Positions 2,710 through 50,486 of a stretch of DNA of 64,000 nt are shown in pieces. This DNA comes from Patescibacteria group bacterium. Its GTDB lineage: Bacteria > Patescibacteriota > Patescibacteriia > JACRDY01. A program made the position numbers and the translations under genes. The DNA lies in the NCBI GenBank assembly GCA_041653535.1, contig JBAZFH010000001.1, forward strand, positions 6,052 to 70,051, read 5' to 3'. The notes under the pieces were generated by a model that made no database searches, was not told the origin of the DNA, and worked only from the letters and a program-made list of their open reading frames with translations. The stretch's first letter is position 1; the number at the start of each line of letters is the position of its first letter.

Positions 2710-4110
2710 ATGAAAAATAAGATTTTTATTACTACTGCTATCGATTACGCCAATGATGTTATCCACGTCGGTCATGCCTATCAAAAGGTTTTAGCTGACG
2801 CTTTGGCTAGATTTTTTCGTCTCACAGGCAGAGAAGTTTTTTTTCTTACCGGTACTGATGAACACGGAGCTAATATTGAAAAGAAAGCTAAAGAAAACAA
2901 CAAGAAAGTCCAGGAATATGTTGACTCGGTTTCCGGTCAAGACAAAGAGCAAATCGCGGCGCTTGGCGTTGTCCCCGACCGTTTTATCCGCACTACAGAT
3001 GCCGATCATAAAGAAGTGGTAAAAGATTTTTGGAATAAAATTTACGCCAAAGGGGAAATCTATTCCAAATCTTTTGAGGGTATGTATTGTATGAGCTGCG
3101 AGGCTTTCAAAAACGGCGATGAAATAGTTGACGGTTGTTGTGACGTCCACAAAAATCTTAAACTCGTCGAGCATAAGGAAAATAATTATTTTTTCCAATG
3201 GTCGAAATATCAAAGTTTTTTGACCGAATGGTTTAAAAAAAATCCGCAGTTTGTTTTGCCGGAAGGTAAATATAAAGAAATGAAAAGTTTTCTTGCTGCC
3301 GGAGTTGAAGATATTTCCATTTCCCGACAAAACGTTTCCTGGGGGATTCCGGTGCCAAACGATCCGGCACAGGTAATTTATGTTTGGTTTGACGCGCTAA
3401 TCAGTTATTATACCGCTGGGACTAAAACAGGTTTCTGGGACGATGATGTTACGATTATTCATGTTTTGGGCAAAGATAACCTTCGTTGGCACGCGTTGCT
3501 TTGGCCAGCGATGCTGCAAGCGGCCGACCTAAAACTGCCGGATATAGTTTATGCGCATAGCTTTATCAATATTAATGGTCAAAAAGTAAGTAAGACTTTG
3601 GGTAATATTATTAGACCGACTGAGTTAGTCGATGAATTTGGTACTGATGCGGTTCGTTATTTTTTTCTTAAGCGCGGACCGCTTGATGATGATGTCGATA
3701 TTTCATTGGATAAAATTAAAGAAGTCTATAATGCCGATTTGGCCAACGGTCTTGGTAATTTAGTGCAGCGAGTATCAAAAATTTGCCAGTCGATAGATTA
3801 TGCCAACAAAAATACAGCAGGGTTAACCCTTTCACCGGAGGTTGCTACTAAAATTGAAAATTTTAAAATTAATGAAGTGATCGAAGATATTCAGGCGCGG
3901 ATAGGAGCGGAAAATCGTTTTATTGAAAATGAAAAATTATGGCAAAAAACAGGCGAAGCTCTAGAAAAAGATCTTGATCGTTGTATCACGAATATTCGTC
4001 AAATTGTCTATGATTTGAGTCCGGTAATACCAACCATTGCTGTTGAAATAGAAAAAAGGCTGTCCGGGCAGGTAGTTTGCGGCGAGCCGCTGTTTGCCAG
4101 GATAAAATAA
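2710..4110 (+). CDS. metG: methionyl-tRNA synthetase (short form lacking the C-terminal tRNA-binding domain)
   Basis: HVGH (HIGH) motif, KVSKT (KMSKS variant) and a class I MetRS catalytic core. ATG at 2710; the upstream TTG at 2701 is an alternative start. Confidence 0.9.
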   Translation: MKNKIFITTAIDYANDVIHVGHAYQKVLADALARFFRLTGREVFFLTGTDEHGANIEKKAKENNKKVQEYVDSVSGQDKEQIAALGVVPDRFIRTTDADHKEVVKDFWNKIYAKGEIYSKSFEGMYCMSCEAFKNGDEIVDGCCDVHKNLKLVEHKENNYFFQWSKYQSFLTEWFKKNPQFVLPEGKYKEMKSFLAAGVEDISISRQNVSWGIPVPNDPAQVIYVWFDALISYYTAGTKTGFWDDDVTIIHVLGKDNLRWHALLWPAMLQAADLKLPDIVYAHSFININGQKVSKTLGNIIRPTELVDEFGTDAVRYFFLKRGPLDDDVDISLDKIKEVYNADLANGLGNLVQRVSKICQSIDYANKNTAGLTLSPEVATKIENFKINEVIEDIQARIGAENRFIENEKLWQKTGEALEKDLDRCITNIRQIVYDLSPVIPTIAVEIEKRLSGQVVCGEPLFARIK

Positions 4111-14496: not shown

Positions 14497-14866
14497 GTAG
14501 GAGCTAAAAATAAAGCTTGTCCACGATTTTAAATATATGCGTAAAAATAACCTAATCAATAACGTTCTAGGCGGCTAGCAAGGAAATTTTTGTGCTATAT
14601 GGGACCGCTTAGAAGGCGGTTTTTTTAGTCAGCAGTAGAAAGCGAGTATTTTAACCTTTAGTGACTAAATGAAAATGACTCAGAGTCGTTTGGTCAGTGA
14701 AGGCTAAAGAGAAACGGAAAAACCGAACTTTAACAATTGAATCGAGGAATAATATTCCAACGTCAAAATGAAAATATAATTTTCGTCAAATTACGAAGAA
14801 GTAATATTAGAGAGTCTAATTAAAAAAATACATACTAAGCAAGGATTGTGTTTTCACAATTCTTGT

Positions 14867-18098
<3,232 letters not shown>

Positions 18099-18169
18099 AA
18101 TTATAAGAACATAAATTCAGATTATTATATTTAAATTTTGTACGTTACCATAGAAAAATGGTGATATTG

Positions 18170-18280
18170 TCCTGGTGCTTCCAGCAAGAGGGCCACACCT
18201 GTTTCCATTCCGAACACAGAAGTTAAGCCTCTTAGCGCCGATGATACTTAATAAGGGAAAGTAGGTCAGCGCCGGGACAA
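18170..18280 (+). rRNA. rrf: 5S ribosomal RNA
   Basis: CCTGGTGcttccagcaagagggccacacctgtttccattccgaacacagaagttaagc... matches bacterial 5S. Flanking processing stem ggtgatattgtcc/ggacaatgtcacc. Confidence 0.85.
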
Positions 18281-44922: not shown

Positions 44923-46410
44923 TTAAGAAGTCAGTTTTTTAATAAATTTCATCGCTTGTTGTTTTGTCTTAACCCTTCCTCTTAATTGTTCCTCACGTAA
45001 CTTAGCAATTGCTCTACCAACGTGTGGCCCGGGTTTGATTTTGAGTATTTTAATAATCTCATTACCGTCGAGAATCGGAGCGGGCAATGTTTTTTTGTTT
45101 TTAGCTAGCTTGGCAAGAACAGCTATTCTTCTACGCAGAGCGGCGGAGTAGCTGATAAATTTTTCACCTTTGGCAGGAACAGTAGCCATTTCATCGGCGT
45201 GAATCAGTTTAATTAAATCCTGCCCCGCTGGAGCAATAAAAAAATATTTTTCTATGGTAGTGCTTTTCATTTCGGCAATGCGGCCATGAACGGCGATCAT
45301 GTGTTTGGCGATCAGCCAAAAAACTTTATCCGGGTCGCAATCAATATCAGCATCTTTGTAGGCAGATAGCTTTAGCCGATCGCATATTTCTTTGGCTTTT
45401 TTGGCGCCGACTAAGTCGTGTTCGTTAAAACGAATACGATCACTGCCGTTTTTTTCCGGAGTCTGAATAGTGTAAGGTTTACCAATATCGTGAAAAAGTA
45501 GGCCAATAATAAGATTGACCGAAGGATATCCAGGGTAAAGTTTTTGAAATCTTTTGCTAGTCAAAGTTTTTAGGGCTAAGACAGTGTGCTGCCAGACGTC
45601 GCCTTCGCTATGCCAATTGTTTGGCTGCGGACATTTTTTTATTTTTAGTAATTCTGGCATCAGTTGTTTGATAAAACCAGCTTGGTCGAAAAGTCCTAGT
45701 GCTAGTACTGGCGCGGCATAGAAAGCTTTGAGCAAATCTTTGGCAATAGTTTCGCGAGGAACCACAAAATCATTGCCATTTTTTTTGTTGATTTTTGGCG
45801 CCAGTTTTTTTATGGTTGCCCAGGTATTTTTTTCAATAGCAAAATCTAGCTGGCAGGCAAAGCGGATAGCGCGTAGCATCCGACTATAATCTTCGGCAAA
45901 ACGGACGGAGGGTTTACCAACGGCGCGAATGATTTTTTTTACCAAATCCTTTTGGCCGGCAAAAGGATCGACGATTTTACCGCTGATCAGGTCTAGAGCC
46001 ATGGCGTTGACAGTGAAGTCACGCCGAGAAAGGTCTTCTTCGATTTTCAGTCGGTAGTTGGTCTGGACTTTGAAATCGCGATAAGCTCCGCTGCGGTCGA
46101 TGGAATATTCGGTGCGGGGAAGAGCAATGTCAATAGGAGATGGGAACTGGGAACTAGGATCTGGTAGTTTTGGGTTGAACTTAAAAACACCGAAAGATTT
46201 GCCGACTAGGTCAACTTTGCCATTTTTTCTGAGAAAAGCTTCAAGGGGTTTAGCGGGTACGCCGCGGACGAGCAAATCGTAGTCTTTGATTTTTTTGTTC
46301 AGTAGCAGGTCGCGGACCGCTCCGCCAACCAAAAATACTTCCGCAGCAGGAAAAGTGCGGGTTACCTTTTGAGCTAATTGGATTATTGATTTGTCTATTT
46401 TATTTAGCAT
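44923..46410 (-). CDS. cca: CCA-adding tRNA nucleotidyltransferase with HD domain
   Basis: GGAVRD head motif and LLFHDIGKP HD motif. Start is probably MLNKIDK. Confidence 0.8.
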   Translation of the reverse strand: MLNKIDKSIIQLAQKVTRTFPAAEVFLVGGAVRDLLLNKKIKDYDLLVRGVPAKPLEAFLRKNGKVDLVGKSFGVFKFNPKLPDPSSQFPSPIDIALPRTEYSIDRSGAYRDFKVQTNYRLKIEEDLSRRDFTVNAMALDLISGKIVDPFAGQKDLVKKIIRAVGKPSVRFAEDYSRMLRAIRFACQLDFAIEKNTWATIKKLAPKINKKNGNDFVVPRETIAKDLLKAFYAAPVLALGLFDQAGFIKQLMPELLKIKKCPQPNNWHSEGDVWQHTVLALKTLTSKRFQKLYPGYPSVNLIIGLLFHDIGKPYTIQTPEKNGSDRIRFNEHDLVGAKKAKEICDRLKLSAYKDADIDCDPDKVFWLIAKHMIAVHGRIAEMKSTTIEKYFFIAPAGQDLIKLIHADEMATVPAKGEKFISYSAALRRRIAVLAKLAKNKKTLPAPILDGNEIIKILKIKPGPHVGRAIAKLREEQLRGRVKTKQQAMKFIKKLTS

Positions 46411-47355
46411 AACTGCCTTTATTGTATCATAGTTTGATAAATGAAAAGAGCAGGGGGGGACCTGCTCCGCGGGCAAAAACACCGACATGGCGTTTTTGTT
46501 TTTTTGGTTGCTGTTGAGAAGGCGTCGCTAGGTTTTCTCTGCCCCCCAAAACCATGTAAACACCCTCTGGCGTCCTGTCGTTCCAAATTTGATGGAATGG
46601 TTAATAGTGTTGTGACTACAGAACACAACAGGACTAGGCATGTGCACTGATGGTATTTATTATTTTATTCTTTTTTAGGAACATGTCAATATTGATTTTT
46701 AAAGTAATAAAAAGACCCGAGTCAGTTGCGGCTCGGGCTATTTTTGCGGTTAGTTTAAGGCCGAGCCAGAGGAATATGGTGAGGATACCCATAAACCTCT
46801 GGCGTACTCTATGGTGGTGCCATTTTTTGGCGATTTTTGACGGTTTTCCTCTGAACCGTCAGGCACCTGGTCGCTTTGGTAGGCGTAAAGCCGCTAGCAA
46901 ATAAATTGCCTCGGCTTGCTACGGGCATCGCCACGCCATACTCACAGCGGTCGAGAACCCCACGGGTCTGCTTGATGATCAAGAGGAGGGCAAGATCTCC
47001 GCAGGGTTCGTCGCGCGCAACGCCGCCTCGGTCACGAGATTTATACTGGGCGGTAGTTGCGAAAAAAATCAAATCAAGTTGACAGCCCAGAGACAACTCC
47101 AGCCTCTCCTCAATATTCTGACCATCTTATTAACCAATGGCAGAGAAAAGGAGGTTTTGGCATTAGTGTCCCTGGGTCCAGTGACGCAAATTAATAGCGT
47201 CAATCTGGAAAATTTAAATTGTTAATATTTAATACTTCAGCTTGATTAGGTATTATTGCACAGTAGTATTTTTTTGTCAATACTTTGGATGCAGATTCGG
47301 TAAAAGTTGGTTTAATTTGTTTAAATTTAGATAAAAATATGGGAAATATTTTATC

Positions 47356-47386
47356 CACAAAAAGAGACCTGATGGTGCAGGTCTCC
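47356..47386 (-). terminator. intrinsic terminator on minus strand
   Basis: AGAGACCTG-atggtg-CAGGTCTC hairpin followed (minus sense) by TTTTTGTGG. Confidence 0.55.
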
Positions 47387-47580
47387 TGTGGTTGAATTGT
47401 ATTAATCTTTGTGGTAATGAATTATGTGTGGTGCAATCTTGGGGGCGAAGGGCTGCACTTACGCTTCGGCGGTAAACGATATAACTAATTCCACGTCGGT
47501 TTCCTTTTTGCTGCTTGTTTCGCATGTTTGCTTAATTTATGTTTAACCGTTTTAATAACTATTGTTAACAATGGAAAGCA

Positions 47581-47608
47581 TTGATTTAAGACAAAAAGGT
47601 GATATAAT
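47581..47608 (+). promoter_or_regulatory. promoter TTGATT-16-TATAAT (extended TGn) driving the leader element + tRNA-Ile
   Basis: Near-consensus hexamers about 135 nt upstream of tRNA-Ile; the leader contains a partial copy of the GC-rich element. Confidence 0.55.
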
Positions 47609-47621
47609 GCGAGGGAATTGA

Positions 47622-47710
47622 TATTTGCGTATGCCTGCCTGCCGGCAGGCAGGTAGCTTCCACCCAAGGCGGACAGGCAGCGGTTATGCTCCTGCTTCGC
47701 GGGAGGGGTG
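47622..47710 (+). repeat. partial copy (5' module) of the GC-rich element family in the tRNA-Ile leader
   Basis: atgcctgcctgccggcaggcagg matches the family 5' module; hairpin ctcctgcttcgcgggagg. Confidence 0.5.
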
Positions 47711-47744
47711 CATTTTACAATTTGGTTTTTTACTTTTTATTTAT

Positions 47745-47820
47745 GCGCGTGTAGCTCAGCGGTTAGAGCATCGCCCTTATAAGGCGGGGGTCGATGGTTC
47801 AAATCCATCCACGCGCACCA
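47745..47820 (+). tRNA. tRNA-Ile (anticodon UAU)
   Basis: Acceptor GCGCGTG/CACGCGC, anticodon stem TCGCC/GGCGG with loop CTTATAA (U33, anticodon TAT, A37), T-loop GGTTCAAATCC, encoded CCA. Confidence 0.75.
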
Positions 47821-47977
47821 GTGTGTTTTGTTTAGCAGCTCGGTTTTTACCTAATAATGTCGATCGATGGTTTGTCCCTTCGGGACATCTCCCGTAGGGA
47901 GACAAATCCATCCACGCGCACCATTCTTCGCTCGCTAGAGTGAAGAATGTCCTCCGTAGCTCGAAGAGCGAAGGAGG

Positions 47978-48002
47978 ACGAAACGTTGTTCGTCTCTTTT
48001 AG
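47978..48002 (+). terminator. intrinsic terminator after tRNA-Ile unit
   Basis: GACGAAacgttgTTCGTC followed by TCTTTTA. Confidence 0.55.
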
Positions 48003-48067
48003 TTCCGTCGCGAGCTTCGAATGGCGCGGCCATATTCTATTTATTAGGATTTCAGTATATTAAATTA

Positions 48068-48096
48068 TTGACAATGGTCGTTTTTGGCTTTATAAT
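48068..48096 (+). promoter_or_regulatory. consensus sigma70 promoter TTGACA-17-TATAAT upstream of tRNA-Val locus
   Basis: Perfect hexamers. Confidence 0.65.
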
Positions 48097-48263
48097 CAGC
48101 AGCACTAATATTTAGTAGTTATTAATTTGTAATTTGAAATTATCTTTTGGGCGTATAGCTTCCACCTACGCCCTCATTACATTCGGGCTTCGGCGGACAA
48201 GCATCTGGTATTTCACCATTTGCCTGCCAGTCGAAGCTCGCCAGTAATGGCGAGTGTAGATTG

Positions 48264-48317
48264 GGGCGGTTAGCTCAGTTTCTGCCAGAGGCAGACCCGC
48301 CTTCGGCGGGGGTTAGA
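48264..48317 (+). pseudogene. tRNA-Val 5' fragment (GGGCGGTTAGCTCAG) fused to a 34-nt GC double-hairpin insert
   Basis: 15-nt exact duplicate of the 5' end of tRNA-Val at 48564, followed by tttctgccagaggcagacccgccttcggcggggg + ttaga. The same 48-nt junction recurs at 48683-48730. Confidence 0.6.
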
Positions 48318-48563
48318 TTGTTTTTTTATGTCGGGAATATATGTTTTAAAAAGTTTAAAAAACGGTAAAAGATATGTGGGTAGTACTCGTAAAGATGTAG
48401 ATTTAAGGTTGAAAGAGCATAATTATGGGTCAAATGTTTGGACTAGGCAAAACGGACCTTTTAAATTAATTTATAAAGAAGGTTTTACTGACTATAAAGA
48501 TGCTTTGAAAAGAGAAAGATTTTTGAAGTCAGGCCAAGGCAGAAAATTTTTAGATAGTATTTT
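48279..48563 (+). mobile_element. roughly 285-bp insertion carrying a GIY-YIG nuclease gene, flanked by a 15-bp direct duplication of the tRNA-Val 5' end
   Basis: Direct repeats gggcggttagctcag at 48264-48278 and 48564-48578. The insert begins with two GC hairpins (ctgcc-aga-ggcag; cccgcc-ttc-ggcggg). Confidence 0.5.
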
Positions 48564-48573
48564 GGGCGGTTAG
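48328..48573 (+). CDS. small GIY-YIG nuclease domain protein (YhbQ/UPF0213-like)
   Basis: GIYVLKSLKNGKRYVGST ... RLKEHN ... motif. The last codons and stop overlap the first 10 nt of tRNA-Val. Confidence 0.65.
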   Translation: MSGIYVLKSLKNGKRYVGSTRKDVDLRLKEHNYGSNVWTRQNGPFKLIYKEGFTDYKDALKRERFLKSGQGRKFLDSILGG

Positions 48574-48640
48574 CTCAGCTGGTTAGAGCGTTACATTGAC
48601 ATTGTAAAGGTCACAAGTTCGAATCTTGTACCGCCCACCA
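48564..48640 (+). tRNA. tRNA-Val (anticodon GAC)
   Basis: GGGCGGTTAGCTCAGCTGGTTAGAGCG, anticodon loop TTGACAT, T-loop AGTTCGAATCT, encoded CCA. Terminator hairpin cagagactatagaagtctctg + T-run follows at 48645-48671. Confidence 0.85.
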
Positions 48641-48682
48641 AAGGCAGAGACTATAGAAGTCTCTGTTTTTTGTTGTATAAAA

Positions 48683-48783
48683 TTAGCTCAGTTTCTGCCA
48701 GAGGCAGACCCGCCTTCGGCGGGGGTTAGAGCGTTACATTGACATTGTAAAGGTCCGTGGTTCGAGTCCACGTATGCCCACCA
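48683..48783 (+). pseudogene. 5'-truncated second tRNA-Val(GAC)-like gene, D-arm onward, with the same 34-nt insert in its D-loop
   Basis: ttagctcag + 34-nt insert + ttagagcgttacattgacattgtaa ... ggttcgagtcc ... tatgcccACCA. No matching 5' acceptor strand (GGGCATA) upstream. Confidence 0.55.
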
Positions 48784-49325
48784 AAAGAACACCAGTGATG
48801 GTGTTTTTTTGTTTATTTAAAAAAGCCGACATTGCTATGTGCATCGTCGGCTATTGTTTTGATGCTAATCTTCGTCATCGTCTTCTAGCCCGTCAGAGGG
48901 CGGAAAGATTTCTATTGGATGATCTTCATTGTCTAGTTTTATGGCTAGCGCTAGGAGCATCAAGGCGTTTCTGGTTCTGGGGCTGCGACCGCCTCCGAAA
49001 TAAGTTCGGAAACGTAATACTGGTCCATGATGACCGTCTGTGCATACCCAGGCGTCACCGTCTTCCGAAAACTGGACTATTATTTGTCCTTTTGCCGTTC
49101 CGTCATTATCATCATGAAGTCGGGCGAATGTTTCTTTCGACGATAGGTCTGGAATCTAAAAGGGGTTGTTTAGAACACGATAGGCGTCTTTGATTAATCT
49201 TGCCGTTCCCGGTTCCGGTGGCATTTGCATTTCTCCTTTTGAGGTTGGTTTTTAAAATAAGCAGTGTTTTTTTGGTGCGTTAATAAATGCTAGCAAAAGG
49301 TCGTGTGAATAGCAAATGGGTATTT

Positions 49326-49354
49326 TTGACAAAAAGGCTTAACATTGTTAATAT
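49326..49354 (+). promoter_or_regulatory. promoter TTGACA-17-TAATAT
   Basis: Upstream of the glycoside-hydrolase gene. Confidence 0.5.
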
Positions 49355-49409
49355 TTATAGTCCATTGAAAATAAATAACTGTCGGAAATACATAGAAAGG
49401 GAGGGCACT

Positions 49410-50486
49410 ATGTCGCAAATTGAAAAAAAATTATTTGCTGCAACTGCGATTTTGCGTCGTTGTATTGGCAAGGAAGGTATCTGGGCCGACTCGACTCGTT
49501 ACCAGTATCAGTGCTGGACGCGTGATTTTGTATTGGCAGTGTTGGAAGTTTTGTTGCAATCGCAGCGAGACGACCTAATCCGAAAACATCTTCACGGCAT
49601 TGCCTTTCGGCAACAACCAAACGGTCAAATTCCGATCCTTTTTTTGGAAAATGAGTTTTGCTGGCTCTGGGAAAAAATCAAGCGCAGTATCAAAAATCGT
49701 AAAGTTTCTTTTATGCTGCGTCGGTACTTCACCGGACATCTGTGGGATCTTACTCCCGGGACAAGGGACTCGGAAATCATGTTTCTTGTCGGCATGTATG
49801 AATATGCCAAGCAGTCCGGCGACAACAGTTTGGTTGCCGAGCACAATGTCGGTTTGTACCGAGCGCAGACCTACATTGAAAAATTTTTAATGGAAAACGG
49901 TCTGGTCGTCGGTTGCGATTGGCGCGACACCATGGAGCGTGAGCTTGGCGACAAACCGCTACTGACCAACAATTCTTTGATGTATCGCGCTTATAATCTG
50001 ATGGGCGAAAAAGAAAAAGCCGATCGGTTGCGTGCGAACATCAATTCAGTGTTGTGGGACGGGCAGCGCTATCTGGATTATCCGGATAGCGAGCGCTTTG
50101 ATCCGCTCGGTGGCGCGTTGGCCGTACTGTATGATGTGGCTTTGCCGGAACGTTATGCCAGTATCATCGAAGGGTTCCGGTCGGTTGATACCGATCGCGG
50201 TGTAACCATTCAATGTCGGCATAATCCGATGGTTGCCGAAGAAGCCAAAGTGATCAACCGCACCAACGGCGTGGTGATCTGGCCATTTGTTCTCGGGTTC
50301 ACCGTCTTGGCTTTGATCAAGATGGGTGAGAAAAAGTTGGCCAAGGCGCAGTTCGACAAACTGGTCGCGCTTGACGGTTTCCGCGAGTGGTACGACCCAG
50401 CGACTGGCAAGGGTTATGGCGCCAAAGAGCAGCTTTGGTCCGCGGCGCTTTATTTGCGGGCACTGAGAGCGATTCGCAATATGTGA
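49410..50486 (+). CDS. (alpha/alpha)6-barrel glycoside hydrolase, glycogen-debranching/GH63/GH15-like
   Basis: RBS AAAGGGAGGG; start MSQIEKK. Motifs CWTRDFVLAVL and QLWSAALYLRA typical of six-hairpin glycosidases. GC about 52%. Confidence 0.55.
   Translation: MSQIEKKLFAATAILRRCIGKEGIWADSTRYQYQCWTRDFVLAVLEVLLQSQRDDLIRKHLHGIAFRQQPNGQIPILFLENEFCWLWEKIKRSIKNRKVSFMLRRYFTGHLWDLTPGTRDSEIMFLVGMYEYAKQSGDNSLVAEHNVGLYRAQTYIEKFLMENGLVVGCDWRDTMERELGDKPLLTNNSLMYRAYNLMGEKEKADRLRANINSVLWDGQRYLDYPDSERFDPLGGALAVLYDVALPERYASIIEGFRSVDTDRGVTIQCRHNPMVAEEAKVINRTNGVVIWPFVLGFTVLALIKMGEKKLAKAQFDKLVALDGFREWYDPATGKGYGAKEQLWSAALYLRALRAIRNM

Follow-up and report, generated by a model that had tools for sequence, protein, structure and literature searches.

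The 64,000-nt stretch of Patescibacteria group bacterium DNA analyzed here (the window) carries a tRNA-Val(GAC) gene whose 5' end is overlapped by an open reading frame (ORF) for an 81-aa GIY-YIG nuclease, and which stands between two partial tRNA-Val copies, each interrupted by the same 30-nt double hairpin (the module). The feature is real and recurrent. With confidence slightly above even, the locus is read as one copy of a widespread selfish cassette in which a minimal GIY-YIG nuclease and a mobile double hairpin jointly colonize tRNA genes. The novelty is best read as the combination, in bacteria and linked to tRNA, of double-hairpin mobile elements with a free-standing nuclease cassette of homing type.

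All three tRNA-Val pieces (left fragment, ORF with intact tRNA, right fragment) were retained in the window (Table 1). The final codons and stop of the ORF were tRNA-Val positions 1–10, with TAG (48571–48573) at positions 8–10, and a T-rich spacer separated the ORF start from the tRNA sequence resumed after the first module copy. The sequence gggcggttagctcag was present at both 48264 and 48564. A direct repeat (48270–48322 and 48683–48735) extended over 53 nt at 96% identity, with its leading 48 nt exact; since the 32-nt repeat core occurred exactly twice in 64 kb and in 0 of 100 shuffles, a chance origin was excluded. The remainder of the right fragment (48724–48783) was 89% identical to tRNA-Val (repeat D1) and is best read as the displaced 3' part of such a gene; Rfam scored the downstream copy (48722–48780), which is without an acceptor 5' strand, as a partial tRNA of only 34 bits. 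The intact tRNA is best read as functional, the cassette having either kept or supplied it. The promoter-like site would drive leader, tRNA fragment, ORF and tRNA together. The leader between promoter and left fragment (48103–48263) was strongly structured (z = -5.1), and a segment of the fossil within it (48133–48160) matched 48548–48575 at 75% identity (repeat D4).

A preliminary description of this DNA, made from its letters, had named the intact tRNA, the ORF overlapping its 5' end, the 15-bp duplication of that end, the 48-nt exact repeat and a 5'-truncated downstream copy with an identical hairpin; all were recovered, and the downstream copy behaves as the decayed, ORF-less remnant proposed there. 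The hairpin insert it gave as 34 nt was found to be 30 nt (48281–48310 and 48694–48723), the preceding 'tt' belonging to the tRNA D-loop, and the continuous insert of about 285 bp did not hold up: tRNA sequence resumes within it, so that the upstream piece is the 5' third of a tRNA with an inserted module. Within the unit there was no recombinase and no ORF besides the GIY-YIG one. An integrase-type tRNA island or prophage was rejected on the missing recombinase and on the duplication, which comprises the tRNA 5' part and internal sites, not the tRNA 3' end. A split or permuted tRNA built from the fragments was also rejected, as the left (positions 1–24) and right (positions 8–76) pieces overlap and their acceptor strands are unpaired.

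Table 1. Features of the tRNA-Val(GAC) locus and its neighborhood in the window, with module sites inside reading frames of other loci.
Feature	Position	Strand	Remark
Promoter-like site TTGACA-17-TATAAT	48068–48096	+	Sigma-70-type, 12/12 match; candidate driver of whole unit
Older fossil in leader	48133–48176	+	Resembles ORF 3' end/tRNA 5' junction, then tRNA-like GGGCGTATAGCT/TCCACCTACGCCC with internal deletion
Left tRNA-Val fragment gggcggttagctcagtt	48264–48280	+	tRNA positions 1–17: acceptor 5' strand, D-stem, start of D-loop
Double-hairpin module, copy 1, TCTGCCagaGGCAGA CCCGCCttcGGCGGG	48281–48310	+	30 nt, in D-loop of left fragment
tRNA sequence resumed after copy 1, ggttaga	48311–48317	+	D-loop and 3' strand of D-stem
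81-aa stand-alone GIY-YIG nuclease ORF	48328–48573	+	
Intact tRNA-Val(GAC)	48564–48640	+	ARAGORN; Rfam tRNA, 72.8 bits
Terminator-like hairpin and T-run	48640–48677	+	3' of intact tRNA
Start of right fragment, ttagctcagtt	48683–48693	+	tRNA positions 8–17 only; acceptor 5' strand absent
Double-hairpin module, copy 2	48694–48723	+	Identical to copy 1, same D-loop position
Rest of right tRNA-Val fragment	48724–48783	+	Different allele: anticodon arm same, T-arm and acceptor 3' strand TATGCCCACCA differ
Second terminator-like hairpin and T-run	48782–48811	+	
Hairpin-bearing tRNA-Ile(TAT) 3' copy	47860–47923	+	5'-truncated; variant 30-nt double hairpin in T-loop; ORF absent
In-frame module sites	L170 9973–10002; L135 1637; L134 11075; L178 12026; L158 4131; L183 1147; L140 2736		

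The ORF product matched the Pfam GIY-YIG family (PF01541; E 8e-16, residues 1–68) and was 100% identical to a database entry named 'GIY-YIG nuclease family protein'. Its homologs numbered 382, mostly of 80–81 aa; in 34 aligned sequences Y16, R27 and E63 were invariant and Y5 and H31 were kept in at least 90%. The AlphaFold2 model (predicted local distance difference test score 95) consisted of catalytic domain throughout, and neither Pfam nor the model gave an appended DNA-binding domain. The closest solved relatives in a PDB sequence search were the UPF0213 proteins BH0048 and EF2693, and the top Foldseek matches were 1zg2 (UPF0213), Slx1 (6seh; TM 0.67), the I-TevI catalytic domain (1ln0) and the UvrC N-domain (1yd6). 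On sequence and modeled fold the protein is probably a minimal GIY-YIG nuclease of the UPF0213/Slx1-like branch, its nuclease role being predicted. I-TevI-type sequence-specific homing is unlikely because a DNA-binding domain is lacking and closely similar proteins stand at ten tRNA isotypes; Slx1-like, structure-specific action on extruded hairpins would be the most economical account. Slx1 cuts branched DNA, a substrate that fits a hairpin or cruciform module; it depends on Slx4, however, and possesses a RING domain in addition. The UPF0213 proteins (YhbQ/BH0048/EF2693), likewise stand-alone GIY-YIG proteins and the best match in both sequence and fold, have to our knowledge no established substrate and no reported linkage to tRNA genes or hairpin modules.

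Recurrence was assessed in a context scan with one genome per species (80 loci), whose genomes were labeled candidate phyla radiation (CPR), Omnitrophota, Dehalococcoidia/Chloroflexota, Elusimicrobiota and WOR-3; some labels of metagenome-assembled genomes (MAGs) look unreliable. A same-strand tRNA started -6 to +200 nt after the ORF, mostly within +30 nt, in 65 of 94 GIY-YIG matches (83 loci), which is an underestimate, as 7 matches lie at contig ends and some tRNA-Asn genes bear introns (L034). Ten isotypes were represented (Asn, Val, Ala, Ile(TAT), Met, Lys, Pro, Thr, Arg and Phe). The stop codon fell inside the tRNA in 34 of 63 ORFs, was TAG in every case and lay at tRNA positions 8–10 in 27. 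The first 12 nt of the tRNA were copied within 250 nt upstream of the ORF in 43 of 65 loci, and a Shine-Dalgarno-like motif was found in 14 of 87 loci only.

Locus L001 consisted of tRNA-Ile(TAT), hairpins, a tRNA-Val 5' fragment with double hairpin and ggttagagcgca, ATG, ORF and overlapping tRNA-Val(GAC). The order tRNA-Ile(TAT)/GIY-YIG/tRNA-Val(GAC) is common to this locus and the window at 68% protein identity, and the L001 hairpin stems carried compensatory changes relative to the window. A serine recombinase 1.9 kb away in L001 was not recurrent in other loci. The window-like plan was also found at tRNA-Val(CAC) in L002, together with a second, divergent GIY-YIG gene at tRNA-Ala; several GIY-YIG copies within a few kb, on different tRNAs, were present in L002, L021, L042 and L099. 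In divergent paralogs (30–45% identity) the architecture was kept and the hairpins were different, longer or single, which points to co-variation of enzyme and hairpin. In a neighbor-joining tree of 76 residues the phyla were intermixed. A phage vector was considered and set aside: IMG/VR contigs held only 2 full-length homologs, each accompanied by hairpins and tRNA-like pieces, and the cassette is not primarily phage-borne. In a literature search neither small GIY-YIG genes linked to tRNA nor the 30-nt module were found described for bacteria, most subscription journals lying outside its coverage, so that a prior description is possible.

Two of these loci gave further observations. In L099 (1950–2420) a second GIY-YIG gene of 79 aa directly follows tRNA-Thr and has its own 35-nt double hairpin, which splits the anticodon of a tRNA-Tyr copy between positions 34 and 35; the tRNA-Tyr duplication takes in 10 nt upstream of the tRNA, which also code for the last codons of the ORF. 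In L034 (~2300–2560) the tRNA-Asn 3' of the GIY-YIG gene, missed by ARAGORN, seems to be broken at anticodon position 35/36, 3' of GGCTGT, as would fit the group I introns that have been described in Patescibacteria tRNA-Asn (PMC13011429).

The module consists of two 15-nt hairpins, each of 6 bp with a 3-nt loop, with the consensus TYNGCC-rra-GGCNRA followed by YYNGCC-tyy-GGCNRG. A canonical 15+15 module ended 8–69 nt (median ~17) before the start codon in 67 of 84 main-family ORFs; about 10 more had degenerate, nested or tandem versions, and in four the intact tRNA instead stood immediately 5' of the ORF, with the module-bearing copy 3' of it. Covariation was tested on 73 distinct modules chosen on their invariant GCC/GGC cores only. 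The three outer pairs of each stem were 99.4% paired, 6 of 12 pairs showed double-sided changes, and the covariation score was 0.33 vs 0.11 in shuffles (0/500) and collapsed in slid registers; the stems are conserved as two adjacent hairpins by compensatory change. Counts of G:T vs A:C mismatches, which bear on the strand of the structure, were too few and without clear bias, and a longer closing stem around the module showed only a weak excess due to the T...A flanks.

Relative to tRNA, the module was a precise 30-nt insertion without target duplication. Its sites (a slash marks the insertion point) were in the D-loop (AGCTCAGTT/GGTTAGAGC), D-stem (GGTAGCT/CAATGG), position 8/9, anticodon stem (GCAGTT/GGCTGTT), anticodon loop (CCCTTTT/AAGGAG) or T-loop, depending on the locus. 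Of the homing-type GIY-YIG element at the tRNA-Val D-loop that had been suggested at the outset, the tie to tRNA genes stood, in dozens of unrelated genomes and at ten isotypes, a recurrence to be expected of a mobile element of homing type, whereas the D-loop as its defining target did not. In outline the preliminary description was right about a GIY-YIG mini-element at a tRNA; it was wrong on introns and the D-loop and missed the hairpin as an autonomous, dispersed element.

A degenerate module pattern searched against metagenome contigs gave at least 120 stretches; the following counts refer to 86 sites in 80 loci, among the matches listed. A GIY-YIG gene lay within 150 nt at 2 of the 86 (3–5 on a looser view) and a tRNA nearby at 9. 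At 36 sites the reading frame stayed open for 50 codons or more to either side of the module, which there adds 10 residues of the types SAKGGSASGG or SPPKADPPLAE. By their flanking residues the hosts were RseP-, UvrC-, GyrB-, PGI-, MiaB-, RNase R- and CCA-enzyme-like, with search confirmation for PGI alone. The module-bearing PGI had 500 aa vs 490 aa in more than 100 Omnitrophota orthologs, and in the alignment a clean gap of 10 aa coincided exactly with the residues that the module encodes; the orthologs present a true empty site for the module. Module loci ranged in host GC content from 0.30 to 0.69, and GIY-YIG genes occurred at ~1 per 67 kb in the module-selected contigs. Flanks were biased toward T-T/module/A-A, without duplication. 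The module is a mobile, dispersed mini-element in its own right that also enters housekeeping genes in-frame.

Loop 1 (RRA) and loop 2 (TYY) are of complementary classes, giving the module a quasi-dyad symmetry, and 30 of the 86 sites matched the pattern on both strands. The flanks were symmetric as well. Inside ORFs the module was found in either orientation, and it also occurred in contexts that are not transcribed. Because module and flanks share this dyad symmetry, a role at the DNA level (cruciform) is favored over one at the RNA level. An initial impression that the module is always co-oriented with the tRNA was withdrawn, as it nearly equals its own reverse complement. Nested modules, with one inside hairpin 2 of another, were seen in L132 (5725), L144 (3866), L045 (~1900–1965) and L057 (~1900–1990); the same nested composite in two unrelated contigs suggests composite sub-families.

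Several loci record rearrangement. Of 54 loci that could be evaluated, 9 had the arrangement seen in the window after the intact tRNA: a spacer, a few nt, the module and then the 3' part of the tRNA. In the window and in L055 the tRNA pieces of one locus came from different tRNA alleles and would therefore reflect successive invasions, each bringing its own tRNA. L042 had two tandem units of fragment, module and ORF before one tRNA, the product expected from a second strike on the intact tRNA. Among Giovannonibacteria assemblies with an identical ORF (L091–L098) the segment of spacer, module and tRNA-Lys 3' half varied in copy number: one copy, two or more, or three or more. This tandem array has a 117-nt unit (L093, ~2840–3160), and several contigs end inside it. 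An identical ORF, P0032, was found behind two different upstream genes, the homology breaking exactly at the left edge of the module, which recombination between modules could also account for.

The cassette would work as follows. Its nuclease gene lies directly 5' of a tRNA gene and is read into it, and could thus be transcribed from the tRNA promoter; co-transcription is suggested by the position of the promoter, the scarcity of Shine-Dalgarno-like motifs and the overlap of ORF and tRNA. RNase P processing would remove the stop codon and may so hold nuclease levels low. The second part is the 30-bp quasi-dyad-symmetric double hairpin at the 5' edge of the nuclease gene. The nuclease may see extruded hairpins or cruciforms as branched DNA and cut there or at T/A-type sites, and the break would be repaired by recombination with conserved tRNA sequence as portable homology. 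The module, the ORF and the tRNA or its 5' part would thereby be copied into a resident tRNA gene, which would be split into an upstream 5' part and a downstream 3' part, each module-bearing and dead, while the cassette would keep or import one intact tRNA and the host survive. Later recombination between repeats would delete either the downstream fragment, which leaves the common form, or the ORF, which leaves pseudo-tRNAs with a solo module and tandem arrays.

Several points weigh against this mechanism. The intact tRNA keeps every candidate target, so a nuclease specific for naive tRNA DNA would also cleave the locus that encodes it. Strand transfer is beyond a hydrolytic GIY-YIG enzyme, which leaves the arrival of modules at non-homologous ORF sites unaccounted for. 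The link between enzyme and module is one of association and co-variation, with 2–5 of the 86 listed dispersed modules near a GIY-YIG gene. The breakpoint in L099/L103 could be plain module–module recombination. An empty site at the level of the ORF was not found, and the databases hold no close relative of the window genome; in a search by flanking genes, orthologs of the downstream glycoside hydrolase reached at most 64% identity, and no synteny was shared by their loci (L084–L090). The neighbor-joining tree was weakly resolved on its 76 residues, and many MAG taxonomic labels are doubtful.

Away from GIY-YIG genes the module is, among the listed sites, far commoner than beside them, and it enters many unrelated sequences. 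Both facts fit a cassette that homes alone or with a host partner, the double hairpin being an unrelated parasite of dispensable DNA (dead tRNA fragments and 5' leaders). We consider this unlikely: the canonical module keeps a near-constant distance upstream of 67 of 84 ORFs across ten isotypes and several phyla, divergent nuclease subfamilies have different hairpin modules in the same place, and the GIY-YIG density in module-selected contigs seems high for such a family. The high ratio of modules to enzymes could also mark a GIY-YIG gene of REPIN/RAYT-like kind, vertically kept and semi-domesticated, which disperses or polices hairpins and sits at tRNAs only for expression, with the fragments as collateral damage of module insertion and module–module recombination. 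ORFs that are intact with conserved catalytic residues, and a gene order shared by the window and L001 at 68% identity that suggests long residence, speak for it. It is nevertheless given a low probability in view of the several copies per few kb on different tRNAs, the ten isotypes in use, the mixing of phyla in the tree, the fragments from foreign tRNA alleles and the tandem arrays resembling reinsertion.

At the RNA level, module and tRNA pieces might form a 5' stabilizer or translational operator of the nuclease mRNA or, more boldly, a scaffold plus guide that brings the domain-less nuclease to tRNA genes. The module does stand 8–35 nt before a start codon that seldom has a Shine-Dalgarno-like motif, target-derived sequence lies on both of its sides, the protein has no DNA-binding domain and the leader is strongly structured. 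The quasi-dyad symmetry, with both-strand matches at 30 of 86 listed sites and symmetric flanks, fits a role in DNA instead, as do the occurrence of both orientations inside ORFs and the non-transcribed contexts; the mismatch counts were uninformative, and the RNA account is held quite improbable. Almost no credence is given to a decayed group I intron or IStron, or to an artifact of assembly. Nothing beyond the analogy drawn in the preliminary description speaks for intron or IStron ends: at E≤1, Rfam gave tRNAs and noise only, and no ribozyme family, in 46000–50000, the insert is nearly all ORF, and the interrupted tRNA copies are without an acceptor strand. The same architecture, seen in over 80 assemblies that different projects produced independently, argues against an artifact.

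The closest analogs of the cassette are fungal mitochondrial mobile-ORF (mORF) elements and double-hairpin elements (DHEs). mORFs are known from atp6 of Allomyces macrogynus and from atp6, atp9, cox2 and nad3 of Glomus; each brings a free-standing endonuclease ORF (LAGLIDADG; GIY-YIG in atp9) into an essential gene with a replacement terminal segment, the native segment is displaced as a dead duplicate, and differences between inserted and native sequence imply a horizontal origin (PMC3630166). The nuclease ORF, replacement segment and displaced non-functional native piece are likewise found in the window cassette, which differs in being bacterial, in residing in a tRNA gene rather than a protein gene, in usually duplicating the 5' part or whole of the tRNA, in having a bare 81-aa catalytic domain as its enzyme and in the conserved 30-nt hairpin module at the junction. 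Mitochondrial DHEs (Paquin et al. 2000, as cited) are short, GC-rich pairs of adjacent hairpins in intergenic regions, rRNA and protein genes, without flanking duplication, conserved across species and held to be mobile by an unknown mechanism (PMC10085805, PMC2800124, PMC3787672). By description the module resembles DHEs: it too is made of two hairpins, dispersed (including inside genes) and precise, without target duplication, while it occurs in free-living or episymbiotic bacteria of several phyla, is exactly 30 nt and frame-preserving, has the T-T/A-A flank bias and is systematically tied to one nuclease family and to tRNA fragments. Phage T4 SegB is a free-standing GIY-YIG homing endonuclease within a tRNA cluster, and the T-even Seg genes spread by double-strand break and recombination with co-conversion of flanking markers (PMC2330249). 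GIY-YIG genes among tRNA genes are common to both systems; Seg proteins, in contrast, exceed 200 aa, have DNA-binding domains and defined sites, and are without hairpin module, partial tRNA duplication or ORF–tRNA overlap. From free-standing homing endonucleases generally the 81-aa protein differs in having no appended DNA-binding domain for site-specific recognition.

REPINs and RAYTs offer a functional analogy only, as do the Rickettsia palindromic elements (RPEs). REPINs are short, dispersed palindromic repeats that also border the gene of their own dedicated enzyme, and the RAYT is an HUH tyrosine transposase capable of strand transfer; an HUH (Y1) transposase is absent from the present unit, the associated gene being a hydrolytic GIY-YIG. 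RPEs lie in-frame in protein genes and are 100–150 bp long, and we know of no enzyme for them. A bolder extension of the selfish-cassette reading is possible but doubtful: the 81-aa protein would serve a new class of mobile DNA in bacteria as its dedicated, structure-specific enzyme, without transposase chemistry or a DNA-binding domain. It would recognize 30-bp double cruciforms and, jointly with host repair, drive both the in-frame spread of the mini-elements through essential genes and the take-over of tRNA genes, and the sole intact tRNA, supplied by the cassette, would serve as a poison–antidote hold on the host.

If the selfish-cassette reading is true, the stand-alone UPF0213/COG2827 branch of GIY-YIG proteins gains a testable substrate (double-hairpin or cruciform DNA) and a role, and mORF-type segment replacement and DHEs, as in fungal mitochondria, are also at work in bacteria, on tRNA genes. 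It would also account for the tRNA-fragment debris, and for a recurrent 10-aa Ser/Ala/Gly insert in housekeeping proteins, of CPR, Omnitrophota and other uncultured lineages; such debris and inserts mislead the annotation of tRNAs and proteins. With only 81 aa of nuclease and 30 nt of recognition structure, the system would be very small and programmable-looking. Interest is rated high because the cassette ties the turnover of tRNA genes, across several uncultured phyla, to an orphan protein family and to a mobile structure of 30 nt.

Other features of the window lie nearby. In the tRNA-Ile region (47745–47923) the anticodon TAT is rare, and the gene is followed by a truncated copy of its own 3' end; the variant module in that copy is TGTCCCttcGGGACA TCTCCCgtaGGGAGA (47873–47902; repeat D3). 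A T-loop hairpin fragment likewise lies 3' of tRNA-Ile(TAT) in L001, with hairpin sequences that differ from those of the window. Structured leaders of 130–160 nt (47615–47744 and 48103–48263) separate both tRNA promoters from their tRNAs and share the motif TAGCTTCCACC...GGCGGACA(A/G)GCA; the leaders of L001 and L099 have a related hairpin, GTAGCTCCCG..GTTCC..GGAAC..GGCGGGCA. Both window leaders look like layered debris derived from tRNA. Further upstream, about 1.1 kb (46500–47600) without a convincing ORF contains GC-rich, hairpin-rich stretches (e.g., 46900–47060); no Rfam family was matched there at E≤1, and the stretch could be an unannotated RNA or further element debris. Elsewhere, a 23S rRNA match (14866–18277) spans 3231 nt vs the 2925-nt model and so carries ~300 nt of inserted sequence in one or more places. 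A 5S rRNA gene follows, and the window is without 16S rRNA; unlinked rRNA genes are a reported trait of CPR bacteria.

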